Source of the DNA: a virus
Virus genome (UHGV): UHGV-0144289
DNA length: 35,479 bases
Reading direction: 5' to 3' (one strand)
Position 1 is the stretch's first letter; every line of letters starts with the position of its first letter. The position numbers and the translations under genes are program-made. Below the pieces are notes generated by a model. It had not been told where the DNA came from. It did not search any database and saw only the letters and a program-made list of their open reading frames with translations. Below are positions 1,600-18,633 of the stretch, piece by piece.

Positions 1600-1828
1600 T
1601 AAAGATAGCTCCGAAGTCTGGTTCTTCCTCCCGCACCGTCTCTTCCTGCTGGTTGCGGTATTTAATCGGGTTCAGGAAATGGCCCCACGTCGTTTTAGGA
1701 TGGCCGTCTGCCCTTTCCATGAAAAAGACACCGGCCCGACGTAGCGCTTCACACTGCCTCGATTTAAGTGGGGTCCCCGTCAGTTCGATCATTTCCTCTC
1801 TGGTGATGATGTCGTGATCGTGTCTCAT
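1583..1828 (-). CDS. xis: Excisionase-like small DNA-binding protein
   Basis: 81-aa ORF directly upstream of and overlapping int by 17 nt; helix-turn-helix-like segment (REEMIELTGTPLKSRQCEALRRAG); start codon preceded by the GAGGAAAGACC start-associated motif. Confidence 0.5.
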   Translation of the reverse strand: MRHDHDIITREEMIELTGTPLKSRQCEALRRAGVFFMERADGHPKTTWGHFLNPIKYRNQQEETVREEEPDFGAIFNGRKT

Positions 1829-1988
1829 GGTCTTTCCTCAGCATGCCGGCTATCGCGTTGTCTGCCGTATCGCAAGCGCGTTGGATATCGGACTGGGTCA
1901 GAGTCCTCTTTCTAACGCTGGCTGATAGCCTGCCAATTTTGATATCGAAATCTGAAAGTAAAAGTGTGCCTGGTTGCCAACGTAGCAT
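1764..1988 (-). CDS. Hypothetical protein (doubtful ORF)
   Basis: 74-aa ORF overlapping the xis-like start by 65 nt; no recognisable domain; may be spurious or shorter. Confidence 0.2.
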   Translation of the reverse strand: MLRWQPGTLLLSDFDIKIGRLSASVRKRTLTQSDIQRACDTADNAIAGMLRKDHETRSRHHHQRGNDRTDGDPT

Positions 1989-2023
1989 TGTGATCTCCGG
2001 TTCATAGGTAGATCACAATGCTA
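1983..2023. repeat. Perfect 14-bp inverted repeat TAGCATTGTGATCT / AGATCACAATGCTA separated by 13 bp
   Basis: Read directly; lies in the gap between two minus-strand ORFs of the early-left operon. Confidence 0.8.
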
Positions 2024-2037
2024 ACGACAGTTGCGAG

Positions 2038-2259
2038 TTATTTCTGATTAGGCTTAATCAGGTTTGGTTTATTCCGGAACGCGCCATTTTCGCGGGTGAT
2101 TTTGGCACTGCGCGGAAAATGCATAGCCAGTTCACAACGCGCGCAGGCTTCGATTATCCCGTTAGTACCGTCCGGAAAAACGACGTGAAGCGCGTCGCCT
2201 CGTTTCAGTGTGAGTTTCAGCATATCAGCGCACCTGCAGCGAACGTTCGCCAATCTCAA
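2038..2259 (-). CDS. Hypothetical early protein
   Basis: 73-aa ORF in the leftward early operon, overlapping the next gene by a few codons; no confident domain assignment. Confidence 0.4.
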   Translation of the reverse strand: MRLANVRCRCADMLKLTLKRGDALHVVFPDGTNGIIEACARCELAMHFPRSAKITRENGAFRNKPNLIKPNQK

Positions 2260-2791
2260 GGTGAGCGCCCGGCACTGGGTTTAACAGTTCTTCCGGTATC
2301 TCTCCGCCGTCAGCGGTAATCTGGGCCGCCGCTGCCTGTGCTGATTCAATCGCTTCCTTGATGGCTTTCTTGTCCGGAGTGACTAACGTCTGAACTGTCA
2401 CTAATTCATCCGGCAGTAATTCATCATTATCGATCACGACGTTTATAGCTCCCTTACGTGCGGTAAAGGTATTTTTGGCGGTTTTAACCGTATCCTGACC
2501 GGCGGCCAGTAGACACTGGAGAACATATTTCTTCAGGTTCGTGATCTTACCTTCGAATGATTTTTTGCGGGCGGCAAGGCGTTTGGCCTCTTCATCGCAG
2601 GTTTTTGCCAGGCCTTCCAGATTGCGAACGTGGACGAAAACGGCATCCAGTTTATCGCCGAGTTGTAACTCAAGACCTTCCATTGTGTCGGCGATCATTT
2701 CAGGAGACAGACCAGCACCGTCTTCGTTTTCCAGTAGTGCCTGGAGTTTTGACATATCGGCTGCGATAGCAATTGCAGTGGTGGAAGTCAT
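2225..2791 (-). CDS. Siphovirus Gp157-family protein (commonly found next to phage recombinases)
   Basis: 188 aa; coiled-coil N-terminus and the pattern EEAKRLAARKKSFEGKITNLKKYVLQCL...TFTARKG...VIDNDELLPDEL, which resembles the Gp157 family as I recall it; immediately downstream of the annealing-protein gene. Confidence 0.5.
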   Translation of the reverse strand: MTSTTAIAIAADMSKLQALLENEDGAGLSPEMIADTMEGLELQLGDKLDAVFVHVRNLEGLAKTCDEEAKRLAARKKSFEGKITNLKKYVLQCLLAAGQDTVKTAKNTFTARKGAINVVIDNDELLPDELVTVQTLVTPDKKAIKEAIESAQAAAAQITADGGEIPEELLNPVPGAHLEIGERSLQVR

Positions 2792-4941
2792 TATGCTTTC
2801 TCCTCGGCTTTATTCAGTTCTTTAATGCGCCCATCTTTGATGGAGATGAGTCGGCGGAGCCGGCCAGACAGATAACGTTCATGCTGCGTGTCGCCGTTGG
2901 CCTGGGCGGCTTTAATGTGAACATCGATCTCACGTGCGATAGGGGAAAACACACCGTTGATTTCGTTCACCGTCACGCCATGCGCCAGGGTATTAGCAAC
3001 GCGGCTTAATTTATCGTCAAACTCCTGGCGGAGCCGTGCTGCATCTTCGGCTGATTCGCTGGCGTTCTTCAGGTCAAACTCGGCCTTGTTCTTCTGGCGG
3101 TACTCCAGATTGTCGTAAAGCCCCATAAAGATATCGCCACTGAATCCGAGGCCGGATAACGCTTTTTTGGTCGCATCTGTCAGTGATTTTTTGGCTGCTT
3201 CGCCGTCGCAGGTGATCCCGTATTTACTACCGTAAATGTAGGGTGTACAGCCGTATGCTGTTTCCTCACCTCGTACTCCGTTCAGGATGTACCAGAGCCG
3301 GACAGTCACAACATGGTGCTGTTCGTTGACGGTATTACCATTCCCATCAAGAACCAGCTCCCACGATGCGTTGTTGTCTTTGCCTTTTACCTGCCGAGTG
3401 ATCGGCGCGCCAATATCGAAACGCTCTTCAACAATATCCACGCCCCAGCCGATGCCCTTAGGGCCAAACTCACGTGTGGCAAGCATGGTCATGTAGGTAC
3501 CGTTGATCGAGGTGCCACCGCCGTTCTGTGTGAAAGCCTTAGTAAACCTTTCGTCGGTTTTAAATACGCGTTTCCAGAGGTCTAAATTGTCTTCCCCGAT
3601 AATTGGTTTTCCGACAGCCTGCACAACATCCTCAGCGTTAGGCAGGCTTTCAGCGTGAGCGATTTGTTTTGCTAAACGCTCGGAATCATCAGCCAGTTTT
3701 TCAGCCTTAACGCTTAACTTCTCTTCCGGCTCTGCACCTTCACCAGAGGCATATACGCCATAACCCATATCATTGAGCGTCTCACGCGCCTGTTTGGCCT
3801 GAGTGTCGGTTACAACCGGCTGCTGCGCTTCCACTTTTTCGCCCACGTTTGAGGCGGTATTTTGCGTCGCCTCTGGTTGTTTAACGGATCCTGTCTCGGT
3901 TTCCTCAAAGCGACCGTTGGCCGCCAGCCATGAATCGATATGGCGGCGCAGGCTGTCAGGGAAATGGTAGGTATCTTTCGCCGGTACGTTTTGTACCACG
4001 CCGAAGATGCTGGCACGGTCGTATTTGAGTATCTGCGGCGTGGTGTGCAGCGATGCTGACCAGCGTTTAAAATCTTCCCGGTCATCGGAAATCATCTTCT
4101 TAGCGTCCAGAAGGTTTCCGGATAGTACCGGCGCATCAGGCGCCAGCGGGAGAAGGGCGGTAGCGATCTCCTGATCCAGCGTTGCATAAGTGTGTTTATA
4201 CCCGCGCTTAGAAATTACCACGGGTGTTTTATCATCGGTGCTGGTGCTGAGAGCGGTATTTTTATATACGCCGGGGGCCAGTTCGTCGCGCTTGCCCGGA
4301 TTCTCAAGCCAGCGTTTAACGAACTGAGAGATAGCCGCTTTGCCCGGCGTCTGGTTTTCAAAGTGGGAGAAAATACCCTGAATAAGATTGTTCAGACCTT
4401 CCACATGCATGCTTTGAACCGGGAAGTTATTTTGCAGGGCGCACAGAACATTAAAGTTAAAGCGATCTTCCTCTTCAAATTCCCCATCGTGGTTTTTCAG
4501 ATTATCCAGATAATCCACAACCTGAGAATAAAGATGGCCATCAATCGCCGCGGTGCTAAAAAGCAGGACGGCAGCAAAGCGTTCATCAGGGGAAACGGTC
4601 ATCAGGTCGATCACTTCATCGTCGGCTGGTAAACCTGCACCACTTCCGGAAGCGCTATCCTGCGCAGTAGAAACCCATTTTTCACCGTCAAAAGTATGCT
4701 GCTGGGCGAATGACTCATCGAACTGGCCAACGGTCGGCAGCGGCTGGCCTTCAACGTGTTCCCACAGTTTCGGTTTGAAATAGTTGTCACCATTGGCCGG
4801 GTATGATTCCCAGAGTTTGCCGGTCATAATGCTTTCGGCCACTTTTTTGTTTGGCGCATCGATGGCGATCGCCAGCTGCACGGCGCCGCAGTCTTTAATC
4901 GCCGATTTCTTTGGCTCAAATGAGCCGTTGTAGATGGTCAT
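2791..4941 (-). CDS. Large recombination protein with a C-terminal Erf/Rad52-like single-strand annealing domain and a ~430-aa N-terminal region of unknown function
   Basis: 716 aa from the ATG at 4941 (preceded by GAGGAAAGACCA). The C-terminal third (YGCTPYIYGSKYGITCDGEAAKKSLTDATKKALSGLGFSGDIFMG) resembles the conserved core of Erf/Rad52-type annealing proteins. Position in the early-left operon fits a recombination function. Confidence 0.6.
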   Translation of the reverse strand: MTIYNGSFEPKKSAIKDCGAVQLAIAIDAPNKKVAESIMTGKLWESYPANGDNYFKPKLWEHVEGQPLPTVGQFDESFAQQHTFDGEKWVSTAQDSASGSGAGLPADDEVIDLMTVSPDERFAAVLLFSTAAIDGHLYSQVVDYLDNLKNHDGEFEEEDRFNFNVLCALQNNFPVQSMHVEGLNNLIQGIFSHFENQTPGKAAISQFVKRWLENPGKRDELAPGVYKNTALSTSTDDKTPVVISKRGYKHTYATLDQEIATALLPLAPDAPVLSGNLLDAKKMISDDREDFKRWSASLHTTPQILKYDRASIFGVVQNVPAKDTYHFPDSLRRHIDSWLAANGRFEETETGSVKQPEATQNTASNVGEKVEAQQPVVTDTQAKQARETLNDMGYGVYASGEGAEPEEKLSVKAEKLADDSERLAKQIAHAESLPNAEDVVQAVGKPIIGEDNLDLWKRVFKTDERFTKAFTQNGGGTSINGTYMTMLATREFGPKGIGWGVDIVEERFDIGAPITRQVKGKDNNASWELVLDGNGNTVNEQHHVVTVRLWYILNGVRGEETAYGCTPYIYGSKYGITCDGEAAKKSLTDATKKALSGLGFSGDIFMGLYDNLEYRQKNKAEFDLKNASESAEDAARLRQEFDDKLSRVANTLAHGVTVNEINGVFSPIAREIDVHIKAAQANGDTQHERYLSGRLRRLISIKDGRIKELNKAEEKA

Positions 4942-4985
4942 TGGTCTTTCCTCTTGGTTACTGGCGCAGGTCACGCGCCGGTTAA

Positions 4986-5309
4986 TTAAAACGGTACGTC
5001 GCTTTCTTCAATTGGAGAGTGATCGATGCACAGCAGCTGCTGAATCTGGTCTTCAATAACACCCAGCTCCTTCTTTGCTTCGGCAGAGATTTTCTCTTTC
5101 TTCGCACGAAGGGCATTAACCTGCATACCAATAATGTCGATTGGCTCTAAAGCTGGAATGGCAACCTCTACCGTTTTGGTAGTAACGAGGACATACAGAT
5201 CAGGGTATTGCTGTGACATGTCACAGGTGAATGAGTGATAAGACGTTGGTAGATATGGTTTGGTTGTGGCCATAACGTAAATAGTTACGGGGATGGTAAG
5301 CGCTTCCAT
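4986..5309 (-). CDS. Hypothetical protein, first gene of the leftward early operon
   Basis: 107-aa ORF with RBS AAGGAG 7 nt upstream of the ATG; no domain recognised. Confidence 0.6.
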   Translation of the reverse strand: MEALTIPVTIYVMATTKPYLPTSYHSFTCDMSQQYPDLYVLVTTKTVEVAIPALEPIDIIGMQVNALRAKKEKISAEAKKELGVIEDQIQQLLCIDHSPIEESDVPF

Positions 5310-5333
5310 AGCGACTCCTTGATGATATATACT

Positions 5334-5452
5334 CAGAGCCGATCAGCGGCTCTGTCGTTGGTCTTTCCTCGCTACAGGGTTGGTCCCCTGTAGCATTCTG
5401 GGCGGTTTGGTCACTGTCCCGGGTAAATTAGCCCACTTCGGTGGGCTTTTTT
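5334..5452 (+). ncRNA. Candidate small antisense RNA in the early-left leader (speculative)
   Basis: Possible extended -10 (TGATATATA, ~5323-5331), then two strong hairpins (5334-5354 and 5371-5394) and a textbook intrinsic terminator on the plus strand (AGCCCAC-TTCG-GTGGGCT plus six T, 5430-5452). No plus-strand gene exists here. Confidence 0.25.
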
Positions 5453-5527
5453 ACGCCTGAAGGTTGCCGGTCTTTCCCGGCTGTCAGGGTGGTCAGCCCC
5501 ATTGGTCTTTCCTCGTTACTGCGTGAA

Positions 5528-5560
5528 TGCTTTAAAAAAATGCCCGGGGCGCCCGGGCCA
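5528..5560 (-). terminator. Intrinsic terminator on the minus strand within the early-left leader
   Basis: On the minus strand: GC-rich hairpin GCCCGGGCGCCCCGGGC followed by TTTTTTT. Lies between the putative PL promoter and the first early-left gene, implying an antitermination requirement. Confidence 0.5.
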
Positions 5561-5748
5561 AGACTACACACAGCAATTCGTATTCGTTGCGGTCTTTCCC
5601 GCATGTCATCGTACTGTCGGCGACCCGAAGAATTCGCGCCCGTCTTTCCGGACTGTCAGAACTGTTTCTGAACAACTGCCGCGTGGTTAGTGCGTCTTTG
5701 ATGTGGTGAAGCATAACCAAAGGTATTTTTATTGGCAATGTTTTTTAC

Positions 5749-5760
5749 TAACAAAAGTTA
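5749..5760. promoter_or_regulatory. Operator-type site TAAC-AAAA-GTTA next to the putative leftward early promoter
   Basis: Same TAAC-N4-GTTA dyad as the two sites in the repressor/cro intergenic region. Confidence 0.45.
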
Positions 5761-5767
5761 ATATTAG

Positions 5768-5805
5768 AGGTGTAAAAAAAGGCAATGCATTGAAAACATT
5801 GCCTT
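5768..5805 (-). terminator. Terminator downstream of the repressor gene (hairpin AGGCAATG...CATTGCCT flanked by A/T runs on both sides; potentially bidirectional)
   Basis: 8-bp perfect stem with a poly-T tract on the minus strand immediately after the repressor stop. Confidence 0.5.
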
Positions 5806-5809
5806 TAAT

Positions 5810-6223
5810 TTATTTTTTTGGAGTGTTTTTTTTCTTTTTTACCAAAAGTAACTCATCAAACAATCGCTGGAATCCGTCAACTTTATCTTTCAACTCATTG
5901 ATATGTCTATCTTTTTCTGATTCAGGTAGAGAATCAAAAAGATCAAGCAGTAGCTTTTGGCGATCATCTAACCGAGGTAAAAGCTCTTCTGCCTTCAACG
6001 GTTCATCGCTATCGGTACCGTTAAGTAACCATGTCGGAGAGCAACGAAGAGCCTCAGCGAGAGAAAACAGATTTTGCCCTTTTGGGGTGTTAATACCTGC
6101 TTCCCACTTGTAAACGCTGACGCCAGATATGCCAACGGCATCGGCGAGCTGCTGTTGTGTCAAACCAAGCTCTTTCCGTCTCGATGTAATGCGATCGTTA
6201 AAGGTCAATTTTTTCATATCCAT
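5810..6223 (-). CDS. Prophage repressor, XRE-family helix-turn-helix protein with no recognisable autocleavage (peptidase S24-like) domain
   Basis: 137 aa; N-terminal HTH (LTQQQLADAVGISGVSVYKWEAG); divergent from the cro-like gene across an operator region; the C-terminal part is acidic/coiled-coil with a lysine tail and shows no LexA/cI-type catalytic signature. Confidence 0.8.
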   Translation of the reverse strand: MDMKKLTFNDRITSRRKELGLTQQQLADAVGISGVSVYKWEAGINTPKGQNLFSLAEALRCSPTWLLNGTDSDEPLKAEELLPRLDDRQKLLLDLFDSLPESEKDRHINELKDKVDGFQRLFDELLLVKKKKNTPKK

Positions 6224-6228
6224 AATAT

Positions 6229-6281
6229 AAGTTAACTTGACATAACTTTCGTTAGTATTTATGTTCCTAACTGACGTTAGG
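6229..6281. promoter_or_regulatory. Immunity switch region: rightward early promoter (-35 TTGACA 6237-6242, -10 TATGTT ~6260-6265) with two operator dyads TAAC-TTTC-GTTA (6243-6254) and TAAC-TGAC-GTTA (6268-6279)
   Basis: Dyads overlap the spacer and start region of the promoter that would drive the cro-like gene; the repressor gene starts divergently at 6223. Confidence 0.55.
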
Positions 6282-6291
6282 AGAGGAAACT

Positions 6292-6489
6292 ATGAAGACC
6301 GAAACTGTTATCAGATTTTTTGGAACTAAAACCGCTGTTGCGCGTGCATTAGGTATCTCTCAAGTCGCTGTAACCCGCTGGGGGACTGTTGTTCCTGAAA
6401 AGCGAGCTGCGCGACTTGAGCATGTAACCGCGGGCGCCTTGAAGTACGACCCTACTTTTTACGAAGAGCAAAACACGTCTAAAGCATAA
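6292..6489 (+). CDS. Cro-like / YdaS-like small HTH regulator
   Basis: 65 aa; HTH (TKTAVARALGISQVAVTRW); first gene of the rightward early operon, RBS AGGAGAGG. Confidence 0.7.
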   Translation: MKTETVIRFFGTKTAVARALGISQVAVTRWGTVVPEKRAARLEHVTAGALKYDPTFYEEQNTSKA

Positions 6490-6551
6490 CTACAGGCGTT
6501 ATCGAAATCTGATTACGCTTAATCAATTTTCAGCGACAGGAGACGCTCGAA

Positions 6552-6998
6552 GTGGAATACCTCGAAGAACTTAAACGAGAGATCTTTAACTGGGCAGCGG
6601 AAAGCGGGCAGGAGCTGGTTGCTATCGAGATAAGCCGCATGTGGTTTCGTCTTGGTGGTAATACCGGTTCGCTGAAGCTGCACCAGATCGAAGATGCAGA
6701 TGGAAACGCCGACTGGCGGGCAATCAACAACAACCGCCAACAAATTTTTCGTTGGTTGCGAGGCGAGACCAAAGCCGCGAGAGCCAAAACTCTGGCGCTG
6801 GTCAAAGCGATGGAAGCGGCGCTGCCGGCAGAACGTTACGCGCGCTTGGGTATGTCCACCCAGTATTTAATTTGTGTGGCCATTCGTGAGTTTGCCGCGG
6901 CGATTATCGCGTTATTACTCGACGCCAGAGACGGGCCGCAGCAAGTCGCCAGAGCATTGCAAGCTATGCGAGAAACACAGCGCCTGACCAGCGTTTAA
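6552..6998 (+). CDS. YdaT-like (CII-like) regulatory protein
   Basis: 148 aa, GTG start with RBS AGGAGA; position after the cro-like gene and the motif RWLRGETKAARAK are reminiscent of the Rac-prophage YdaT family (from memory). Confidence 0.45.
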   Translation: MEYLEELKREIFNWAAESGQELVAIEISRMWFRLGGNTGSLKLHQIEDADGNADWRAINNNRQQIFRWLRGETKAARAKTLALVKAMEAALPAERYARLGMSTQYLICVAIREFAAAIIALLLDARDGPQQVARALQAMRETQRLTSV

Positions 6999-7018
6999 CC
7001 TGTACCGAGGAAAGACCA

Positions 7019-7240
7019 ATGAGAACACAAGACCGCATCACCTGGCGGAACGGGTTTCGCCGGAACGGGGTACAAGTCCCGATGGAAGATATCGAATCGA
7101 TTTTCGAGGAACGTCGCGCTACTGCGCTGACAATCTGGGAACGCTACGAACTGCGCAAGGCAGACCTGCAGGAAGCGGGACTTACCCAGAAAGAATACGA
7201 AATCGCCTGCCGTCAGCTGGCTGACTCGCTGGGGATCTGA
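7019..7240 (+). CDS. Hypothetical small protein upstream of the replication genes
   Basis: 73 aa; ATG preceded by the GAGGAAAGACCA start-associated motif. Confidence 0.6.
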   Translation: MRTQDRITWRNGFRRNGVQVPMEDIESIFEERRATALTIWERYELRKADLQEAGLTQKEYEIACRQLADSLGI

Positions 7241-7242
7241 GT

Positions 7243-8235: not shown

Positions 8236-9620
8236 CTCCGCAGGAACTGGAATCTTGTGTACTGGCTGGACTGCTGAACGGTGGAGCAAGTCCGGACGCT
8301 TTCGACGTGATCGCATCGACGCCTGAAGAATCATTCAGCATTGTTTTTCATCGTCGCGCCTTCTCGGAAATCAAAAAACAGGCGTTGACGAACGGTCTGA
8401 TCGATATGCTGTTTGTCAGTGAGGCTCTGGGAGGGAGTAGCCTGGCTGATTTATCAGAGATTTCGCGTATGCCCGCCACGGTACCAAACCTGAAAGGTTA
8501 CGCCGGGAAAATGGTGAAGGCGTGGCGCAGCCGCCGTATGGCTGAATTACTGCAAAATGGTGCTGATGGTATCCGCCAGGCGAATAATCAGGAGCAGCGC
8601 GATGAGATTGTCGAAACTGCCGTGGCGCAGCTGCTGGACATGACCGGCGACACTGGCGACGTGCAGCCGGTACACATGAGCGAATTATTGCCGGTGTACA
8701 TGGAAACCATGCAGAAGCGCATGGACGGCGAAGAGGGTACTCGCAACCTGAAAACCGGGATCGAGGAACTTGACGATGCGACCGGCGGAATCAACCTGCA
8801 GGATTTGATTGTCGTCGCTGGGCGTCCGGGCATGGGAAAAACAGAATTTGCGCTGAAGATTGTCGATGGTGTTACCGCTGCTGGCGGTGGCGCGTTGATA
8901 TTCAGCATGGAAATGGCCGCTGCGCAAATCGTAGAACGCGCTCTAGCGGGTTCTGGCAACATGTCAGTGTCACGCCTGCGTAATCCCCTCGATATGCAGG
9001 ACGAGGACTGGGCGCGCTTTACAGCGGCCATGGAGACCATGAACGGGCGCGATATCTGGATCGTTGATGCTACCGATCTGACGATTGAGCAAATCCGCGC
9101 CGTTGCCGAAACGCATAAGCGCCGGTATCCGCATCTGGCGATGATCGTTGTCGATTACCTTGGCCTGATTAAAAAACCGAAGGCAGAGCGTAACGACCTC
9201 GCGATCGCCCACATATCCCGAAACTTAAAAACTATGGCTATGCGCCTGCATACGCCGACGTTCGCGCTTAGCCAGCTTTCCCGCGCCGTGGATTCCCGCC
9301 CGGCGGCCCAGCGCCGCCCGGTCATGTCAGACCTGCGCGATTCCGGTTCCATTGAGCAGGACGCCGACAGCATCATGTTTCTGTACCGCGATGAGGTTTA
9401 CAACCCGGAAAGCCCGGCGGCTGGCGTCGCTGAAATTATCCTGGGTAAAAGCCGCTTCAGCGCCGCAGGCGCAATTATTTATCAGGAATTTAAAAACGGA
9501 CACTTTCTGTCAATGGATCAGCATGTTGGCAAAGAGAAAACACGTATCCAACTGGAGGCCGCGAAACCCCGGAAACAACCCCGTAAATACTCAGAGAAAT
9601 TCAATACCGATGCATTTTAA
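8232..9620 (+). CDS. Replicative DNA helicase, DnaB family
   Basis: 462 aa; Walker A GRPGMGKTEF, and DnaB signatures VVDYLGLIK, LSQLSRAVDSR, SGSIEQDADSIMFLYRDEVY. Confidence 0.9.
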   Translation: MTPQELESCVLAGLLNGGASPDAFDVIASTPEESFSIVFHRRAFSEIKKQALTNGLIDMLFVSEALGGSSLADLSEISRMPATVPNLKGYAGKMVKAWRSRRMAELLQNGADGIRQANNQEQRDEIVETAVAQLLDMTGDTGDVQPVHMSELLPVYMETMQKRMDGEEGTRNLKTGIEELDDATGGINLQDLIVVAGRPGMGKTEFALKIVDGVTAAGGGALIFSMEMAAAQIVERALAGSGNMSVSRLRNPLDMQDEDWARFTAAMETMNGRDIWIVDATDLTIEQIRAVAETHKRRYPHLAMIVVDYLGLIKKPKAERNDLAIAHISRNLKTMAMRLHTPTFALSQLSRAVDSRPAAQRRPVMSDLRDSGSIEQDADSIMFLYRDEVYNPESPAAGVAEIILGKSRFSAAGAIIYQEFKNGHFLSMDQHVGKEKTRIQLEAAKPRKQPRKYSEKFNTDAF

Positions 9621-9658
9621 CCGCGCCTGACCAGCGCGATTTAACTGAGGAAAGACCA

Positions 9659-10327
9659 ATGACCACGAATTTAAATTACCCAAAACCAGTAAAACCGGAT
9701 GATGGCTGCAACTGGCTCCCCGTTATTCTCTGGCGCATGAATGCCGGTGCGCGCGCCCGTAGCCGTTCCGTGTTCGTAGCGGCGCCACGTCCGGCCCCTG
9801 TACCAGGCATCACCCCGCAAAAACCGATTAAGCGAGAAATTATCGCCCCTACGGTTTCCGGCCGCAGGCGTAAAACCCACATCGGCACCGTGATTTATTC
9901 CAGAGGTGAAAAAAGCGTTCGCCTTAGCGAAGGCGCGACTGTCTGGTCTGCTGGCTCAAATGAGCATTTCGATAAAAAAACGGGCCAGCGCGTCGGCAGT
10001 ATTGGTCGTCACCGTCTGGTGCTGGAGAGTATCCGCCCATTGCAGGCCAGCGACGCACAACAGGACGCCGGGAGCGTCACCGCGCAGCAACTGGTAGCCG
10101 TGATGAAAGGCAAAACGCTTTCTTACCAGGGCATTCTGGCATTAATCCAGAAGCACTATCCCGATTGTCAGGTGACGACTAAAGAACTTCACGATCGCGT
10201 GTTCGGCATGTTCATGTCGAATTACGTGGGTATCACCCGTCACGACGATATGCCGGTGGTTCACTTCACGCTTAACAGCGTCGATCCCCGTTATTACATC
10301 GAGTCAGCGAAGAACAAGAGGGCATAA
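9659..10327 (+). CDS. Hypothetical protein (no recognised domain)
   Basis: 222 aa; ATG preceded by GAGGAAAGACCA and a conserved upstream block GCGCCTGACCAGCG. Confidence 0.6.
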   Translation: MTTNLNYPKPVKPDDGCNWLPVILWRMNAGARARSRSVFVAAPRPAPVPGITPQKPIKREIIAPTVSGRRRKTHIGTVIYSRGEKSVRLSEGATVWSAGSNEHFDKKTGQRVGSIGRHRLVLESIRPLQASDAQQDAGSVTAQQLVAVMKGKTLSYQGILALIQKHYPDCQVTTKELHDRVFGMFMSNYVGITRHDDMPVVHFTLNSVDPRYYIESAKNKRA

Positions 10328-10330
10328 GGC

Positions 10331-11318: not shown

Positions 11319-11320
11319 CC

Positions 11321-12165: not shown

Positions 12166-12177
12166 CTGAGGTGGTTA

Positions 12178-12516: not shown

Positions 12517-12539
12517 CGAACAACCATACCAGTTAAAAC

Positions 12540-12568
12540 AGAACCGTCAGAAATGGCGGTTTTCTTTT
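12540..12568 (+). terminator. Weak terminator-like hairpin after the 112-aa gene
   Basis: AACCG...CGGTT stem followed by TTCTTTTG; large loop, so weak. Confidence 0.3.
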
Positions 12569-12658
12569 GAATTCAATCGGATATTTTGAGATTTATTGTT
12601 GATTTTTAACGATTCGTGCTCTTAAAAATTTGCGCTCACTGTCAGTTGGTAGTATATA

Positions 12659-12678
12659 TACTGTAATTTTATACAGTA
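12659..12678. promoter_or_regulatory. LexA binding site (SOS box) TACTGTAATTTTATACAGTA
   Basis: Perfect CTGT-N8-ACAG dyad with flanking TA, matching the enterobacterial SOS-box consensus; located ~20 nt upstream of the RBS of the next small gene and overlapping a probable -10 (TATATA). Confidence 0.8.
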
Positions 12679-12698
12679 TTGTTGTTGAGGGAGAGGTA

Positions 12699-12890
12699 GT
12701 GGTTGATAAGAAAGACGCAGGAGACCTTCTCCCCGACGATGGTGATGTACTGATAACGTGTGAAAATGGGAAGATTAAGAAGACCAGAATTGTCCATTCC
12801 GATGAGCACGTAGCGACACTTAACGCGTTGTTTGAATTAGCTAAATTGACGGGTTATACCATTATCAAACCAGACGGCAATATGCTATAA
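12699..12890 (+). CDS. Small SOS-regulated protein, candidate antirepressor
   Basis: 63 aa from GTG at 12699 (RBS GAGGGAGAGG); the longer TTG-initiated frame from 12630 would run through the promoter/operator and is less plausible; AT-rich island. Confidence 0.5.
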   Translation: MVDKKDAGDLLPDDGDVLITCENGKIKKTRIVHSDEHVATLNALFELAKLTGYTIIKPDGNML

Positions 12891-12958
12891 TTACCCCGTT
12901 GGCCTGAACACCCAACACCATGTAATTCTGAACAATTGCTGCGCTAAAGGGGAACCCA

Positions 12959-13555
12959 ATGGCGCAGTATTCTTTTGTAAAAGCACCCGGCGGTGTATTA
13001 ATTCCGGCAACGCCTGACGCCCGCGAATTCTTAGAAAAAAAAGTCCGCATGGGCGGTATTCTGTATGCGGATTTTAAACAGGCAAGGAACTCGGCATTTC
13101 ACCGTAAATTTTTTGCCCTCCTGAATCTGGGATTTGATTACTGGCAACCTTCCGGCGGTGCAATATCGCCAGCCGATAAAAAACTGGTTCGGGGTTACGT
13201 GCAGCTGGTGGCCCACTATGCCGGGCATGGCGACACATTGCAGGAACTGGCGGATCAGTATCTGCGCGATGAGGCAGAAAAACGCGCCGGCAATATCAGC
13301 GCGGTTAAATCGTTTGAAGCTTTCCGTTCCTGGGTAACTATCGAGGCCGGTTTTTATACCGAATACCAGATGCCTGATGGCACCACCCGCAAGGAACCCA
13401 AATCCATATCGTTCGCAAAAATGGACGATGTAGAATTTTCCCAGCTGTACAAATCCGTATTAGACGTCCTCTGGAATTTTATTTTATTCCGCACCTTCCC
13501 TAATCAGCAGGCAGCAGAAAACGCAGCCTCTCAGCTTTTCAGTTATGCGGCCTGA
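12959..13555 (+). CDS. DUF1367-like phage protein
   Basis: 198 aa; resembles the conserved lambdoid nin-region protein family (MAQYSFVKAPGG...FHRKFFALLNLGF) as I recall it. Confidence 0.6.
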   Translation: MAQYSFVKAPGGVLIPATPDAREFLEKKVRMGGILYADFKQARNSAFHRKFFALLNLGFDYWQPSGGAISPADKKLVRGYVQLVAHYAGHGDTLQELADQYLRDEAEKRAGNISAVKSFEAFRSWVTIEAGFYTEYQMPDGTTRKEPKSISFAKMDDVEFSQLYKSVLDVLWNFILFRTFPNQQAAENAASQLFSYAA

Positions 13556-13565
13556 GGCGGACACT

Positions 13566-14042
13566 ATGAAATTCAATATTCGCTCTCATATCGTCGAGAT
13601 GGATGAGGCCGACGCCTTGATCTTTGTGGGTTACCCCATCCACATCGGCTCGAATGGTTATGCAAAAGTCACCGGCTGGCATTTTGGCAAGGAAAGATAC
13701 CTTCATCGCGTCATCATGAATGCGGGGCCTCATGATGTTGTAGATCACATTGATGGTAATAAGCTCAACTGCACCCGCTCAAATCTGAGGATCTGCACAC
13801 AGGCCGACAATACCAAAAATGTGGGCTTGAGGAGTGACAATAGCTCAGGAATTCCGGGAATTTACTGGGTATCCACTCGCCTAAAATGGGCGGCGCAAAT
13901 TTCAGTTGATGGCAGGACCGTTAGTTTAGGCCGCTTTGATGAAATTGCCGATGCTATCAATGCCCGCCGGAAAGCAGAAGATTTGTATTACGGGGAGTTT
14001 GCAGCCAGCAAGGGGGTGCTTTGTGAAAAAGCGCGCCAGTAA
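13566..14042 (+). CDS. HNH endonuclease with AP2-like DNA-binding domain
   Basis: 158 aa from the ATG at 13566 (RBS GAGG); HNH core HRVIMNAGPHDVVDHIDGNKLNCTRSNLRICTQADN followed by AP2-like segment GIPGIYWVSTRLKWAAQISVDGRTVSLGRFDEIADA. Confidence 0.75.
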   Translation: MKFNIRSHIVEMDEADALIFVGYPIHIGSNGYAKVTGWHFGKERYLHRVIMNAGPHDVVDHIDGNKLNCTRSNLRICTQADNTKNVGLRSDNSSGIPGIYWVSTRLKWAAQISVDGRTVSLGRFDEIADAINARRKAEDLYYGEFAASKGVLCEKARQ

Positions 14043-14337
14043 ATCAGATAAGCAATATTTCCAAGATCTCGTTGAGATAGGTTGTATTGTCTGCAAAGTA
14101 CACTTCGGCGTGTACTCCGCCCCCGAAATCCATCACATCCGAACCGGTCAGGGCATAGCCCAGCGCGCCGACCACAAAGAAACTCTCCCGCTTTGCCCGC
14201 CACACCACAGAACCGGCGGACACGGCGTAGCTATCCACGCAGGGCAAAAAACATGGGAAGAAAACTACGGCACGGAGACTGAATTGCTCGAACAGGTCAC
14301 TAACGAGATAAAGGAATTACGTCTATGCAGAATTTAA
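14023..14337 (+). CDS. Ref-like (recombination enhancement function) HNH-type nuclease
   Basis: ~104 aa from GTG at 14023 (RBS AGGGGGT); Cys/His-rich motif CIVCKVH...EIHHIRTG...LCPPHHRTG. Family assignment from memory; the start codon is uncertain (the ORF is open from 13936). Confidence 0.4.
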   Translation: MKKRASKSDKQYFQDLVEIGCIVCKVHFGVYSAPEIHHIRTGQGIAQRADHKETLPLCPPHHRTGGHGVAIHAGQKTWEENYGTETELLEQVTNEIKELRLCRI

Positions 14338-14492
14338 TTCCGTCTCTAAGAGCAGCAGATAACGCTAAAAAATGCGGTTGGCCAGCACGTGCGGAAAGCA
14401 TGAAATTCTGTTCAGGCTCCTTTTCCATTCTGGCGGGCGGCGATTTTGCCCTTCTCTATGCTCGCGCACGCGCGCGTTTAGGGGGCTGAATT

Positions 14493-14789
14493 ATGCCGCT
14501 GGTCGCCACCTTCCGTACAGACTGGTTCAGAGTCATTACCGACCTGACCCGAAAAAATCTCACCACTCAGCAAATCGCCGATGAACTTGGCGTTTCAAAA
14601 TCCGCCGTCCTCGGCTGGAAATCTGGATCAGAGCCTCGCCATGGTCACGGTGAAGCGCTGATTGCTCTCTGGTGTCTGGCTACCAGCTCAGACCGTAAAA
14701 AACTCCCCACAGTGCTTTACCGCCAGTGGTGGACGTTCCGCCGCCCTGTTTTTGGTCGGGAAACTGACCAGAAGGGCAACACACAATGA
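14493..14789 (+). CDS. HTH DNA-binding protein, candidate late-gene regulator
   Basis: 98 aa; HTH LTTQQIADELGVSKSAVLGW; last regulatory-looking gene before the virion module. Confidence 0.55.
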   Translation: MPLVATFRTDWFRVITDLTRKNLTTQQIADELGVSKSAVLGWKSGSEPRHGHGEALIALWCLATSSDRKKLPTVLYRQWWTFRRPVFGRETDQKGNTQ

Positions 14790-14807
14790 CGACTCACTAA
14801 TACAGGA

Positions 14808-15257
14808 GTGAAAAAAATGGTTCGACCGAAAAAAATCGTTGAGATGCCGGGGCAGGAAAAAGCGGCGCCGGAAGAAAAAACGTTCGTTACAGAGGGGCAG
14901 TTAATTACTGCTGAACAGACCGGCGCGCAGCAGCAGGGTAGCGATAGCGACGAACAGACCGTGCAGCAGAATGTTTCAACCCTGCTTGATGGTACTCAGT
15001 TGGCAGAACGTAACGCCATTCTAGCCACACTCAACGCGCAGGGCGCTGCGATCGTTGCCCGCTTCGAAGAGTACGGCTTCACCGACACTATCGGCCACCC
15101 GCTGACCAACTGTCTCGATTTCCTCAGTCTGGTACGCAAAGCCACTGATGTAAGCACTGGCGGCACAGCGGAGCAGGTGACAAACGAGGAAGGCAAAAAG
15201 CAACCCGTACGCAGTGCGCCGGTATTAACCGAACACGGCTGGCACGTTCCGGGCTAA
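14808..15257 (+). CDS. Hypothetical protein (acidic, Gln-rich N-terminus)
   Basis: 149-aa ORF with RBS ACAGGAG before a GTG start. Confidence 0.55.
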   Translation: MKKMVRPKKIVEMPGQEKAAPEEKTFVTEGQLITAEQTGAQQQGSDSDEQTVQQNVSTLLDGTQLAERNAILATLNAQGAAIVARFEEYGFTDTIGHPLTNCLDFLSLVRKATDVSTGGTAEQVTNEEGKKQPVRSAPVLTEHGWHVPG

Positions 15258-15267
15258 GGAGAATTTT

Positions 15268-15489
15268 ATGTGTGGTAGCGCACCAAAAGTTGTTCAGTCA
15301 GACCCGCAGGCCGAAGCCGACGCAGCAGCAGACGCAGCGGCCAAAGCTGCGAACGCTGACGCAGCAGCGCGCAAAAAGCGCAAACAGGGATCATCCCTGC
15401 TGGCCAGCGGCGCAGAAGGCGCAACGGATACAGGTTCTTCCCTGCTGTCCACTGGCGCACAGGCCGCAAAAAATACGTTAGGGGCTTAA
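15268..15489 (+). CDS. Small Ala-rich protein, paralogous to the N-terminal part of the 162-aa internal protein at 22827
   Basis: 73 aa; starts MC..., contains QAEADAAADAAAK and two GSSLLxxG motifs shared with the proteins at 17335 and 22827. Confidence 0.55.
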   Translation: MCGSAPKVVQSDPQAEADAAADAAAKAANADAAARKKRKQGSSLLASGAEGATDTGSSLLSTGAQAAKNTLGA

Positions 15490-15492
15490 TTC

Positions 15493-17118
15493 ATGGATCA
15501 ACTCGCCAGCCGGTTAATCAGGCGCGCTGACACGCTGAAAGCAAATCGCCAGGTGCACGAAAGCGTCTGGCGGGAATGCTACGACTACACCTATCCGCTG
15601 CGCGGGGCCGGGTTTTCGTCTGAGGTGCTGGACGCACAGAGCGCAAAGCACAAGGTTGCGAAGCTGCTGGACGGCACAGCCACCGACAGCGCCCGTATGC
15701 TGGCGTCCGCGCTTATGTCAGGGATGACCCCGGCGAATGCTCAATGGCTGAACCTCGACAGCGAATTACTTCCTGATGACGCTAAGGCGTGGTTGTCCAC
15801 CTGTGCAACGCTGGTATGGGAAAATATCCACGCCGCTAACTTTGACGCGGAAGGGTACGAGGCCAATCTCGATGTGGTCTGTGCTGGCTGGTTCGCGCTG
15901 TACGTCGATGAGGACAAGGAAGAGGGAGGATTTACCTTCCAGCAGTGGCCGCTGGCGCAATGCTTTGTGACTTCCACCCGCCGGGATGGCATCGTGGACA
16001 CGATTTATCGGTGCTATCAGCTCACCGCTGAACAGGCAGTGAAAGAATTCGGCGCGGACAAGGTAAGCGAAAAAATCCGCGATGCTGCAAAAAACAAACC
16101 TGACGATAAATTTGATTTCCTGCACTGCATTTTCCCGCGTGATACCTACGCCGTAAATGCGAAGCTGGCGCGCAATATGCGTTTTGCATCGTTCAACGTG
16201 GAAGTGAACGGCAAGCGTATCGTGCGTGAATCCGGCTATCACGAATTCCCTGTGTGCGTCCCGCGCTGGATGAAAATTCCCGGCGGCTCCTACGGTATCG
16301 GCCCGGTATACGACGCGCTGCCGGACTGCAAAGAGCTGAACGAAACCAAACGCATGGAGAAGGCCGCGCAGGATCTGGCTATCTCCGGTATGTGGATTGC
16401 TGAGGATGACGGCGTGCTCAACCCGCGAACGGTAAAAGTTGGCCCGCGCCGCGTCATCGTGGCGAACAGCACCGAAAGCATGAAACCTTTGCTCACCGGC
16501 GCAGATTTCAACGTGGCGTTTACCGCTGAACAGCGCCTGCAGGCTTCCATTCGCAAAATCATGATGGCCGATCAGTTGCAACCGCAGGACGGCCCGGCAA
16601 TGACTGCTACCGAAGTGCATGTGCGTGTCGCGCTGATCCGCCAGTTGCTTGGCCCGGTCTATGGACGATTCCAGGCTGAATACCTGCAACCGCTGGTGGA
16701 GCGCTGCTTCGGTATTGCGTTCCGCGCTGGCGTTTTTCCTCCCGCTCCCGAGAGCCTCCAGAGCGCCAATTTCAACGTGCGTTATATCTCCCCGCTGGCC
16801 CGTGCGCAGAAGCTGGAAGATGTGACCGCCATCGAGCGATACGGCCAGAACATCATGCAGCTGGCGCAGGCGTACCCGGATGTACTGGACAACATGGACA
16901 GCGACGAGGCGAGCAAGGTTGTCGGCGAGGCTCTTGGCGTTCCGGCAAAAGTTATGCGTTCCGCTGATGCGGTCGAGCAACTTCGACAGCAGCGCCAGCA
17001 GATGCAACAGCAGCAGGCGCAACAGCAGTTGCTGATGCAGGCCGGGACGGAAGCCGCCGGCGCAGCAGGGCAGGCAGCAGGCGCAATTATGGGACAACGA
17101 CTGGCGGGCAACCAATGA
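15493..17118 (+). CDS. Portal (head-to-tail connector) protein, T7 gp8-like
   Basis: 541 aa; size, position at the head of the structural module and Gln-rich C-terminal tail (QQRQQMQQQQAQQQLLMQAG) resemble the T7 gp8 connector. Confidence 0.75.
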   Translation: MDQLASRLIRRADTLKANRQVHESVWRECYDYTYPLRGAGFSSEVLDAQSAKHKVAKLLDGTATDSARMLASALMSGMTPANAQWLNLDSELLPDDAKAWLSTCATLVWENIHAANFDAEGYEANLDVVCAGWFALYVDEDKEEGGFTFQQWPLAQCFVTSTRRDGIVDTIYRCYQLTAEQAVKEFGADKVSEKIRDAAKNKPDDKFDFLHCIFPRDTYAVNAKLARNMRFASFNVEVNGKRIVRESGYHEFPVCVPRWMKIPGGSYGIGPVYDALPDCKELNETKRMEKAAQDLAISGMWIAEDDGVLNPRTVKVGPRRVIVANSTESMKPLLTGADFNVAFTAEQRLQASIRKIMMADQLQPQDGPAMTATEVHVRVALIRQLLGPVYGRFQAEYLQPLVERCFGIAFRAGVFPPAPESLQSANFNVRYISPLARAQKLEDVTAIERYGQNIMQLAQAYPDVLDNMDSDEASKVVGEALGVPAKVMRSADAVEQLRQQRQQMQQQQAQQQLLMQAGTEAAGAAGQAAGAIMGQRLAGNQ

Positions 17119-17348
17119 TCAAAAAAGACGTAACCCCTGAAGACTACCGGCGCATTTTCGAGGAGATGCCCGGCGGGCCGCAGGTGCTGGACGAATTAAC
17201 GCGCCGCTTCGGGCGTGAGGCGTATGTCAAAGGCGGTACCGAAGGCGACCGGGAAACCTGTTACCGGGCCGGACAGCGTTCCGTGCTCGATTTCATTCTG
17301 ATGCAAATCAACAAAGCAGACGGAGTAAACGACGATGTGGAAGTTTAA
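17115..17348 (+). CDS. Hypothetical small protein between portal and scaffold
   Basis: 77-aa ORF, start overlaps the portal stop (ATGA). Confidence 0.5.
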   Translation: MIKKDVTPEDYRRIFEEMPGGPQVLDELTRRFGREAYVKGGTEGDRETCYRAGQRSVLDFILMQINKADGVNDDVEV

Positions 17349-18183
17349 ACACTTATTCATGAACACCGAAACAGGTGCAGAAGCGCCAGCGGGTAACGCA
17401 GGAGGGGATGATGCTGGTAATAGCGATGGTACTCAAAATCCGGGCGGCGGTACTCCTGCTGGTACTTCGCTACTCAGCACCGGCGCGGGCGAACAAGGCG
17501 CGGATGACTGGCTACCTGAAAAATACCGCGTTATGGGCGATGACGGAAAACTCAACGTTGAAGGCTCAGCCCGCAAACTGGCGGATGCTTACACGCACCT
17601 TGAAAAGCGCATGGGCAGCGGCGACACGCCGCCGAAAACGGCTGATGAGTATGCGCCAAAGGTAGAGGTCGAGGGTTTTAAGTGGGACGAATTCAAAGCC
17701 GACCCGCGCATGCAATCCTTCATGAAATCGGCTCATGCCAAAGGCATCACCAACGATCAGATGGGTTTCATCCTGGGCGAATATGCACAGCTGGCCCCCG
17801 AACTGGTTAACGGTGCTGCGGCGCTGGATTCGGAAGCCGCCGCCACGCAGCTGCGCGAGACGTGGAAAACTGACGCCGAGTTTAATAAAAACATCGGTCT
17901 GGCTTTCCGGGCATTTAACTCTCTGGCAGATGACGGCGACAAAGGGCGCATGGATGAAATCGGCAATAACCCGATGGTGATCCGCATGCTGGCGAAAATC
18001 GGCGCTGAAATGCAGGAGGATGCGCCGGCGGGCGGCGATGTGAATCTCGAAGAACAGCAATCAATCCGTGACCTGATGAAGTCCCCGGCCTACATGGATC
18101 CTAAACACGCCGACCATGAGAACGTTTCCGCCCGGGTTCGCGCGTACTACCAGAAGCGTTACGGTGATCAAACTGTAGCGTGA
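17335..18183 (+). CDS. Scaffolding protein (T7 gp9-like)
   Basis: 282 aa, acidic, Ala/Gly-rich, predicted helical; located between portal and major capsid genes. Confidence 0.6.
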   Translation: MWKFKHLFMNTETGAEAPAGNAGGDDAGNSDGTQNPGGGTPAGTSLLSTGAGEQGADDWLPEKYRVMGDDGKLNVEGSARKLADAYTHLEKRMGSGDTPPKTADEYAPKVEVEGFKWDEFKADPRMQSFMKSAHAKGITNDQMGFILGEYAQLAPELVNGAAALDSEAAATQLRETWKTDAEFNKNIGLAFRAFNSLADDGDKGRMDEIGNNPMVIRMLAKIGAEMQEDAPAGGDVNLEEQQSIRDLMKSPAYMDPKHADHENVSARVRAYYQKRYGDQTVA

Positions 18184-18216
18184 CATGTCACGACAACCTA
18201 ACCAGAGGAAAGACCA

Positions 18217-18633
18217 ATGAGCGACAAAGATATCGAGCAGCAAATTCAGGCTAAAGGCTTAACCGCGCCGCGCGTTACGCCTGATCATATCGAGAGCGTT
18301 ATCAAAGAGTGCCATTATCTCAACGTCGGCGAAGCGGTTCAGGCGGGCTGGCCTGATAAGTCGGCAATGGACGATTGCAGCCCAGCGCTGAACCTGCTGA
18401 CGATTTGTGTTCTGGTGCTGCACAACGGCTTCACCGTCACGGGCGAAAGCGCCTGCGCCAGCCCGCAAAACTTCGACCCGGAGATCGGTCGCAAGATTGC
18501 CCGCGAGAATGCGGTTAACAAGATTTGGATGCTGGAAGGTTACCTGCTGAAACAAAAGCTCAGTGAGCAGTGTACCGATGAGCGCATGTGTGAAAACTGC
18601 TACTCCGGCCAGGGCGCCTGTAATAACAAGTAA
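18217..18633 (+). CDS. Hypothetical protein with Cys-rich C-terminus
   Basis: 138 aa; ATG preceded by GAGGAAAGACCA; C-terminal CTDERMCENCYSGQGACNNK. Confidence 0.55.
   Translation: MSDKDIEQQIQAKGLTAPRVTPDHIESVIKECHYLNVGEAVQAGWPDKSAMDDCSPALNLLTICVLVLHNGFTVTGESACASPQNFDPEIGRKIARENAVNKIWMLEGYLLKQKLSEQCTDERMCENCYSGQGACNNK

Follow-up and report, generated by a model that had tools for sequence, protein, structure and literature searches.

Repeats that mark gene starts have been described in cluster K mycobacteriophages as start-associated sequences (SAS/ESAS), with the question of whether they act through RNA or protein left open (Pope et al. 2011, PMC3203893). IsrB (Rfam RF01386) is a small RNA (sRNA) of the Gifsy-1 and Gifsy-2 prophages, mapped at 88/94 nt, which lies opposite its flanking early-left genes and has no known function (Padalon-Brauch et al. 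2008, PMC2330248; PMC5391140). We analyzed the virus genome UHGV-0144289 (35,479 nucleotides, called the window below), which belongs to a prophage family of Klebsiella/Enterobacter type and contains elements resembling both. A tag of 11-13 bases, GAGGAAAGACCA, sits on the ribosome-binding sites (RBSs) of several scattered genes, and a candidate IsrB-like gene would encode an RNA whose 5' end is complementary to it. With a little less than even confidence, we propose that this antisense sRNA represses translation at the tag, which would serve as its portable target. Antisense-RNA control, as known in phages, would then be combined here with start-associated repeats, by way of an RNA that the preliminary description of this DNA did not see.

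The window's repeats resemble SAS in being short, asymmetric sequences that contain a Shine-Dalgarno (SD) element, are conserved beyond what rRNA pairing requires, stand just upstream of the ATGs of unrelated genes with an intergenic gap before them, nearly always keep one orientation, are rare in the host (here a 65-kb sample), and in a subset of cases follow directly on an inverted repeat. The preliminary description had drawn this comparison, and asymmetry, orientation, proximity to starts, SD content, rarity in the host and the upstream inverted repeat all bear it out. The two systems differ in sequence (GAGGAAAGACC(A) here, GGGATAGGAGCCC in SAS), phage group, host phylum, and number of RBS copies per genome (4-6 here versus 11-19). 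In addition, four or five extra copies lie away from gene starts in the early-left leader, the upstream inverted repeat keeps its pairing while the ESAS arms do not, and a complementary antisense RNA gene can be identified. Judged from these comparisons, the relation to SAS is one of analogy, not homology. The likeness to IsrB covers both placement and structure: the candidate gene lies within the early-left operon but is oriented against its neighbors, its promoter overlaps the start of the downstream gene, and its RNA would have two hairpins, a GCCCAC..GUGGGC terminator and a UUUGGUC loop in hairpin 2. It differs from the Gifsy IsrB in an additional 5' extension of about 26 nt, which carries the complement of the tag (the anti-tag). 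Gifsy-2, whose IsrB does not have this extension, showed neither the tag nor any repeated complement of the IsrB 5' end, and a search for additional GACCAA sites found none.

Nine copies of GGAAAGACC occur in the window against 0.37 expected, and 0 of 100 dinucleotide shuffles reached nine, ruling out chance or low complexity as the origin of the repeats; the longer GAGGAAAGACC has seven copies against 0.49 expected. Six copies of GGAAAGACC are on the minus strand in the leftward operon (1829, 4943, 5360, 5469, 5504 and 5591) and three on the plus strand in rightward operons (7009, 9649 and 18207), with a degenerate tenth tag copy, CCGGAAAGACGGG, at 5640-5652(-). All of them are on the transcribed strand. 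The preliminary description, which had suggested a count against shuffled controls, listed six gene starts bearing the motif, and all six sites are present at the coordinates and on the strands it gave. A real RBS role applies to five copies, those of the xis, RecE-like exonuclease, 73-aa, 222-aa and 138-aa genes, with 0-1 nt between tag and ATG; these tagged genes are preceded by an intergenic gap and do not have coupled starts. The sixth supposed start, a 24-codon open reading frame (ORF) at 5500, is not a gene: its ATG is replaced by ACG, CTGG or CAGAGG in relatives, so that the 5500 copy is a non-coding leader copy. The 716-aa product called an annealing protein in that description is a RecE-like exonuclease (phrog_2489). 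Copies without a start codon had also been reported in the leader; they are present, but they are not incidental, as one is the template of the sRNA 5' tail and others are held in hairpins with compensatory stems.

Conservation of the tag extends far beyond the window. An exact 15-mer scan of viral contigs returned at least 120 loci (individual relatives are cited below by L numbers), about 45 of which hold 5-11 copies in the layout seen in the window. A motif-independent set of 80 loci, fetched by means of the leader-adjacent 107-aa protein, carried 4-9 leftward copies and 0-3 copies on the opposite strand in every case (80/80), and 639 of the 645 copies in 78 of these loci were on the transcribed strand. 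The nearest isolated phage, BUCT708/709, has nine copies in a 16.5-kb segment (0.08 expected). The tag was absent from a 65-kb sample of the E. coli chromosome, versus eight copies in the related prophage resident there, so that the core is not common in this host sample, in agreement with the rarity on which the preliminary description had staked its interpretation. We aligned the initiation regions of four orthologous tagged genes over all loci, giving 34-57 distinct sequences each. Identity of the 11-mer was 0.99-1.00, compared to 0.55-0.86 in the 28 nt upstream and 0.68-0.81 in the 12 nt downstream, and the spacing from tag to start codon varied from 0 to 5 nt. The earlier claim of conservation beyond the needs of SD pairing is thereby strengthened; because that pairing needs GAGG alone, the remaining bases of the tag are read by something else. 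Non-orthologous genes are tagged as well, among them an unrelated alternative excisionase and genes of 94-96, 174, 156 and 89 aa. Taken as a whole, the alignments indicate that the tag is real, strongly selected and widespread. As a separate observation, vB_SmeS_BUCT708/709 (L001; OM816834/OM816835) were deposited as Stenotrophomonas maltophilia phages, yet their early region matches this enterobacterial prophage with 84% identity along about 12 kb and has the full tag/sRNA system; on that similarity the Stenotrophomonas host label looks doubtful.

At the RecE-like, 73-aa and 222-aa starts, the tag forms the downstream part of a cassette of about 45 nt that runs from a hairpin through 8-14 nt, often with UAAC, to the tag, 0-5 nt and the start codon. 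The hairpin stems consist of an invariant CGC/GCG core and one or two covarying outer pairs (GCGC/GCGC, ACGC/GCGU, GGUGU/GCACC), and CUGACCA is the loop in 21 of 39 distinct versions. Among the non-Watson-Crick cells in these stems, G.U was found nine times on the sense strand versus twice on the antisense strand, a bias that fits a hairpin in the mRNA, though the covariation is modest. An upstream block, GCGCCTGACCAGCG, had previously been noted as common to 6980 and 9623. The block is real and can now be described as a hairpin with a CGC/GCG stem and a CUGACCA loop, but it is not limited to that pair, since the cassette is also found at the RecE-like start. The tag of xis falls within the coding sequence of an overlapping upstream ORF (..LRKDH..) and is thus coding sequence and RBS simultaneously. 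This ORF, at 1764-1988 (-) on the 5' side of xis, shows codon-like variation in relatives, its frame runs through the tag (..AGMLRKDH..), and it overlaps the xis start by about 21 codons.

The candidate sRNA gene is located next to the repressor, in the early-left leader and on the strand opposite to the leader transcript. Its -10 hexamer, TATA[AC]T, was present in 50 of 50 distinct relatives; it falls in the 5' untranslated region of the 107-aa gene, with about 21 nt separating it from that gene's CAT. The equivalent placement in Gifsy-2 is taken by TAGAAT, 6 nt upstream of the mapped 5' end of the 94-nt IsrB. In an alignment of 27 distinct relatives, the hairpins and terminator were 93.8% paired, with 14 pairs changed on both sides; 0 of 500 shuffles reached this level, and slid controls gave 44-51%. 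The pairing is also strand-specific, with G.U cells numbering 72 on the plus strand and 2 on the minus strand in hairpin 2 (where reading the minus strand instead would give 74 mismatches), and 11 and 3 in hairpin 1. The U-run of the terminator is found solely on the plus strand (in the window, and in relatives inspected by eye), and the predicted sRNA (5340-5453) folds with z = -6.96. A permissive Rfam scan matched isrB at 5367-5451(+) with 28.7 bits and E = 0.014 (gathering score 35). Conversely, a covariance model built from the sRNA of this prophage family (R1) had IsrB as its best match in each of two loci, Gifsy-2 (E = 0.008) and HK225 (E = 0.025). From this evidence we would say that the plus strand of the window probably makes an RNA homologous to IsrB. 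At the gathering threshold, Rfam reported three tRNAs only in the window and no isrB in 12 relatives, with sRNA-Xcc1 in two only. The sRNA-Xcc1 matches (RF02221; 66-68 bits, above threshold) lie several kb from the leader, at 12230-12318 in L020 and 10882-10970 in L025. A GATC (Dam) site at 5341-5344 (+), within CCGATCAG and just downstream of the sRNA -10, is kept in almost all relatives as part of a short hairpin with covarying pairs, GAGCCG-AUCAG-CGGCUC. In this position it might conceivably make the sRNA promoter sensitive to methylation.

Several observations link the sRNA to the tag. The sRNA 5' tail, UUGGUCUUUCCUC, is the perfect complement of GAGGAAAGACCAA and of every tagged RBS; its template is the leader copy at 5358-5370, and all 27 distinct sRNA genes share UGGUCUUUCC without change. 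Seed-only duplexes had energies of -26 to -31 kcal/mol at the six tagged sites, values that are high by construction, compared to -9 to -15 at the RBSs of cro, ydaT and the 107-aa gene. An RNAduplex scan of the whole window with a 32-nt sRNA tail was not discriminating, as the GC-rich 5' part pairs with many windows. The complementarity continues into the hairpins: UUGGUC in the loops of sRNA hairpins 1 and 2 is complementary to the GACCA of the cassette loops and the tag, and the order of loop, spacer and tag in the cassette is colinear with hairpin 2, hairpin 1 and tag in the sense complement of the sRNA. The R1 model gave weak matches (E = 0.03-0.7) antisense to the cassettes at 4920-5012, 7002-7046, 9594-9683 and 18144-18245. 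The sRNA gene and multi-copy RBS tags also co-occur. The RBS of cro, GGAGAGGAAACTATG at 6283-6289 (+), holds GAGGAAA, the complement of the UUUCCUC predicted to be unpaired in the sRNA, and cro might be a weaker target.

The sequences themselves show the motif counts, the conservation and strand bias of the tag, the complementarity, the strand-specific structure of the antisense RNA and the indel junction described below; production of the sRNA, a 5' end upstream of the anti-tag, pairing in trans, and the direction and timing of regulation are inferred. In the mechanism we propose, GAGGAAAGACCA would be the SD-containing half of a portable cassette of about 45 nt that marks mRNAs as targets of the sRNA. 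The sRNA tail would pair with the tag, cover the SD sequence and block binding of the 30S subunit, so that a single RNA could repress xis, the RecE-like exonuclease, the 73-aa and 222-aa early genes and a moron in the late region. The leader copies, whether linear or in GAAAGA loops, would be further sRNA-binding sites, serving as decoys or as points of control over the leader. Because it is kept identical everywhere, the tag would double as a short patch of homology for the gain and loss of modules. A more speculative extension, which we hold with somewhat greater doubt than the pairing proposal itself, is that one antisense RNA acts as a master translational lock in a widespread enterobacterial family of temperate phages, with cassettes that enroll genes including new morons, leader copies that act as decoys, and tags that act as swap patches. 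Such a lock would offer the first account in mechanistic terms of SAS-type repeats in phages.

A number of observations weigh against translational repression by the sRNA. Its 5' end rests on analogy, and a start at 5367, where the match to the Rfam isrB model begins, would exclude the anti-tag. Half of the seed (UUGGUC) is predicted to be paired with a conserved GAUCAG, leaving only UUUCCUC free. Since the leader contains a sense copy of the tag, complementarity of the opposite strand is automatic, and cannot alone separate an RNA partner from a protein that binds the sense sequence. The base that follows UGGUC in sRNA hairpin 2 did not covary with the one that precedes GACCA in the cassette loops, and none of the relatives compared showed an altered tag; because the paired loop cores are invariant, the kissing-loop part of the proposal gains no comparative support. 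The isrB and RprA matches fall below the Rfam gathering scores, so to curated families these leader RNAs do not belong. A consensus promoter scan does not flag the proposed sRNA promoter; it also misses the experimentally mapped promoter of Gifsy-2 IsrB, and the result is therefore weak evidence either way. Finally, transcription of the leader crosses the sRNA gene from the opposite direction, and the sRNA may therefore not be present at the same time as the early mRNAs.

Apart from any regulatory function, the tags coincide with sites of genetic exchange. The E. coli relative L206 has, between its 107-aa and recE-like genes, a 94-aa gene that is equipped with a cassette of its own and is absent from the window. 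The 70 nt upstream of the recE tag in the window are 94% identical to L206 cassette A and 31% to cassette B, while for the 80 nt downstream the relation is reversed (93% for cassette B, 34% for cassette A). Identity thus switches at the tag, which places the gain or loss of the 94-aa gene precisely between two tags. A common junction of the late region, CGTGACATGTCACG..TAACCAGAGGAAAGACCAATG, precedes the 138-aa gene in the window and a 156-aa gene in L055, where an 89-aa gene with its own tag follows. The idea of linkers that promote module exchange, already raised in the preliminary description, gains substance from this indel and this junction, and the alignments show the tags in the role of recombination joints, whatever the factor that reads them. 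Comparable units are the PeSL cassettes of T4-type phages, in which an early promoter and a stem-loop or terminator flank variable ORFs (PMC2839356, PMC4122927). Both are short conserved stem-loop cassettes that serve as recombination joints for modular shuffling, and they differ in that the cassette here consists of a hairpin and an RBS, with no promoter-like site in the scanned cassette at 6979-7021.

We considered whether a protein might read the tag instead. The tag, with or without its upstream hairpin, would then be the RNA operator of a phage or host RNA-binding protein, either a repressor or activator of the RegA or coat type or an N-like antiterminator acting on the leader hairpins, and the sRNA would be unrelated. 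The G-GAAAGA-C element of the leader is kept with compensatory flanking pairs (UG/CA, CG/CG, GG/CC), reminiscent of boxB-type purine-rich loops, and the strand bias and RBS overlap suit any factor that acts at the RNA level. The family also retains three uncharacterized proteins, of 107 aa (phrog_2479), 73 aa (phrog_2465) and 222 aa (phrog_4183), and the last is basic (pI 10.2) with an invariant Arg-rich helix, ILWRMNAGARARSRS; its protein cluster, P0001, comprises 352 sequences. However, none of the ten proteins tested matched an RNA-binding family in Pfam or PHROG, and the 107-aa and 73-aa proteins are acidic. The 107-aa protein accompanies the tag without exception, but we rejected it for this role: it is acidic, has no known domain, and is reduced by internal deletion to a 42-aa version in L021, which keeps its tags. 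The 222-aa protein was set aside as an RNA binder because its sole recognizable fold is a winged helix, a domain that is typically DNA-binding. Antitermination of the N/nut type was likewise discarded, as no GAAAGA hairpin lies downstream of cro to provide an equivalent of nutR, and the first gene after the leader is not N-like, its product being acidic and lacking an arginine-rich motif. The preliminary description had suggested, as one of two possibilities, a dedicated RNA-binding regulator, for which no candidate emerged from these proteins, and the antisense RNA is the better one. We consider it more likely that the trans-acting regulator is an antisense RNA than a protein, and a protein reader of the tag appears unlikely, although it retains a real chance of being correct.

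Two further explanations dispense with an RNA-level factor altogether. According to one, there is no trans-acting factor, and the cassette is a strong, structure-insulated initiation unit with a hairpin, an unstructured A-rich SD region and near-optimal spacing, spread and homogenized by recombination in a phage with its own RecE-type system to give mosaic joints like PeSL. GAGG placed 8 nt before an ATG makes a good RBS. The 94-aa indel bounded exactly by two tags, the common junction before different morons in the window and L055, the tags before non-orthologous genes, and the intergenic gaps in front of tagged genes would all be expected of such a unit. It leaves unexplained, however, the conserved leader copies that are non-coding or embedded in hairpins; as these are kept with no ORF following, a plain strong RBS cannot account for them. 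Moreover, the 11-mer is 99-100% conserved per base over at least 120 diverged loci, yet it stands at no fixed distance from the ATG, gene conversion is not a likely means of homogenizing copies of 11-15 nt, and selection for future recombination is insufficient as an evolutionary cause. We therefore regard a cassette without any factor as quite unlikely. The other explanation places the site in DNA, where a conserved DNA-binding protein of the phage would recognize it asymmetrically and silence or activate transcription in an orientation-dependent manner, like the stoperators of mycobacteriophage L5; the 222-aa protein remains a candidate for this role. The copies are indeed asymmetric, have one orientation relative to transcription, and are clustered in the leader and single in short intergenic regions. 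Nevertheless, the RBS-type copies always provide an SD sequence 0-5 nt from the start codon, which a DNA site would not need, and the stems covary with strand-specific G.U pairs (in the cassettes on the sense strand, in the sRNA hairpins with the opposite bias), which points to RNA rather than DNA. The tag is also absent from the pL and pR operator regions, and is invariant though repressors and operators differ between relatives, indicating that it is not the repressor's site. A DNA-level function is accordingly very unlikely in our estimation.

Repression by the antisense sRNA may also be set beside better-known systems of phage control. In P22 sar/ant, P1/P7 c4 and P4 CI, a small phage RNA pairs with short repeated targets, one of which overlaps an RBS of an early or immunity operon, and this pairing keeps lytic or anti-repressor functions off. 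The c4 and CI RNAs are processed from the target strand and have two sites in one operon, and sar is purely cis-antisense. Unlike these, the RNA proposed here would have at least five scattered target genes in trans, spread over the two divergent operons and the late region. No Rfam C4 match was found at E <= 10 in 4800-7100, and the candidate RNA is on the strand opposite to its targets. T4 RegA is a protein that represses many early mRNAs at their initiation regions through operators that are degenerate and AU-rich. It resembles the system described here in the use of one factor for many early mRNAs at their initiation regions, and it differs in that the sites here are identical and G/A-rich. 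A resemblance to the RegA regulon had been pointed out in the preliminary description, and no RegA-family match was found by Pfam or PHROG among the ten early proteins scanned. By comparison with the prophage anti-sRNAs or sponges AgvB and AsxR, and with host RprA, the tag copies in the leader could titrate the antisense RNA. Literature searches with the motif strings matched only unrelated primer or eukaryotic text, and no description of this system was found in the literature on prophage sRNAs, Klebsiella RNA interaction by ligation and sequencing (RIL-seq), or RprA homologs.

The early-left leader is itself a structured region. In transcription order it presents two GAAAGA-loop hairpins, a terminator, the linear tag at 5500, a CUGACCA hairpin, a third GAAAGA hairpin, the hairpin at 5371-5394 and the linear tag at 5358-5370, and the stems of the GAAAGA hairpins are compensatory (CCG/CGG and GCGG/CCGC in the window, UG/CA in relatives). 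A subgroup of relatives (L017, L067, L080, L081, L096, L113 and L120) has a different leader RNA 5' of the first terminator, without the two GAAAGA hairpins, but still has the sRNA gene, the RBS tags and the leader copies further downstream; these two upstream hairpins are thus dispensable. On the minus strand, Rfam matched RprA at 5633-5532 with 43.3 bits (RF00034; gathering score 70), and similar modules were found in L008 at 3706-3806 (-) with 56.2 bits and in L107 at 2270-2388 (+) with 43.9 bits. The similarity is confined to the 3' module, where it comprises a 22-nt identity, ACGAAUUGCUGUGUGUAGUCUU, and the terminator; the leader terminator stem of L008 is also close to that of E. coli RprA. 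It may be that the leader 3' module is a phage mimic of the 3' region of RprA, whether for Hfq binding or as a second seed. The leaders of L094, L103, L107 and L008 have a GC-rich insertion of ~150-350 nt between the GCGGGAAAGACCGC hairpin and the RprA-like module, and those of L008 and L042 contain a tRNA T-arm-like sequence, GGTTCGATTCCGG; ARAGORN found no tRNA or tmRNA in the leader insertions of relatives, and they matched no Rfam family. PGAP placed no annotation in the leader of the E. coli relative, and the leader of E. coli 23GD11002 shows 92.7% identity. The plus strand at 5456-5700 would supply further copies of the anti-tag if the sRNA terminator were read through or transcription restarted, and 5499-5514 on that strand is a 16-nt complement of CGAGGAAAGACCAAUG. 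In the hairpin at 5465-5481, G.U pairs occur on the plus strand only in several relatives and on the minus strand only in two others, and both strands may be functional there. The prophage as a whole is of the Rac/Gifsy type, with Cro/YdaS and YdaT/CII-like regulators, and adjoins a cluster of Gly, Cys and Leu tRNAs. Coordinates of the individual features are collected in Table 1.

Table 1. Positions of tag copies, start cassettes, leader elements and parts of the candidate sRNA gene in UHGV-0144289.
Feature	Position	Strand	Description
xis start (DUF4224 excisionase, 81 aa)	1826..1840	-	GAGGAAAGACC-ATG
RecE-like exonuclease (716 aa, phrog_2489) start cassette	4939..4979	-	Hairpin GGCGC-GUGACCU-GCGCC (4979-4963), spacer AGUAACCAA, then GAGGAAAGACCA-ATG (4953-4939)
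Candidate IsrB-like antisense sRNA gene	5328..5453	+	Candidate transcript about 5340-5453, ~113 nt
Putative sRNA -10	5328-5333	+	TATACT; putative 5' end at about 5339-5341
sRNA 5' region			Stem GAUCAG:UUGGUC; predicted single-stranded anti-SD UUUCCUC
Leader copy, non-coding	5358..5370	-	GAGGAAAGACCAA; invariant in 27/27 distinct relatives
sRNA hairpin 1	5371-5394		Loop UUGGUC
sRNA hairpin 2	5398-5423		Loop UUUGGUCAC
sRNA terminator	5430-5447		Followed by U-run
Hairpin-type copy	5465..5481	-	GCCGG-GAAAGA-CCGGC; CUGACAG before it
Leader copy, pseudo-RBS	5500..5514	-	GAGGAAAGACCAATG; hairpin GGGG-CUGACCA-CCC after it
Sense leader RNA	5535..5738	-	Strong terminator 5558-5542 + U7 at its end
Hairpin-type copy within sense leader sRNA	5587..5603	-	GCGG-GAAAGA-CCGC
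Degenerate hairpin-type copy	5638..5652	-	CCG-GAAAGA-CGG; compensatory stem
Early-left promoter-like site	5738-5710	-	TTGCCA-17-TATGCT; downstream of repressor gene
73-aa gene (phrog_2465) start cassette	6979..7021	+	Hairpin AGCGC-CUGACCA-GCGUU (6979-6995), UUAACC spacer, then GAGGAAAGACCA-ATG
222-aa basic winged-helix protein (phrog_4183) start cassette	9622..9661	+	Hairpin CGCGC-CUGACCA-GCGCG (9622-9638), AUUUAACU spacer, then GAGGAAAGACCA-ATG
138-aa Gp49/Sf6-gp66-family moron (late region) start cassette	18179..18219	+	Palindrome CGUGACAUGUCACG, spacer ACAACCUAACCA, then GAGGAAAGACCA-ATG

Repeats of the SAS type have been known since 2011 without a mechanism, and in this prophage such a repeat comes with an identifiable complementary RNA gene. 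With the tag and the RNA gene both in hand, a single pair of compensatory mutations would put the SAS question to a direct test. The two together form a compact, apparently orthogonal RBS/anti-RBS pair, and a marker of this prophage family in the genomes of Klebsiella, Enterobacter, Citrobacter, Salmonella and E. coli. If the proposed pairing holds true, the IsrB class of prophage sRNAs, for which no role has been described since their discovery was published in 2008, would gain a function. It would also show post-transcriptional co-regulation of scattered genes in a temperate phage, how newly acquired genes join such control, and why mosaic joints coincide with regulatory sequences.

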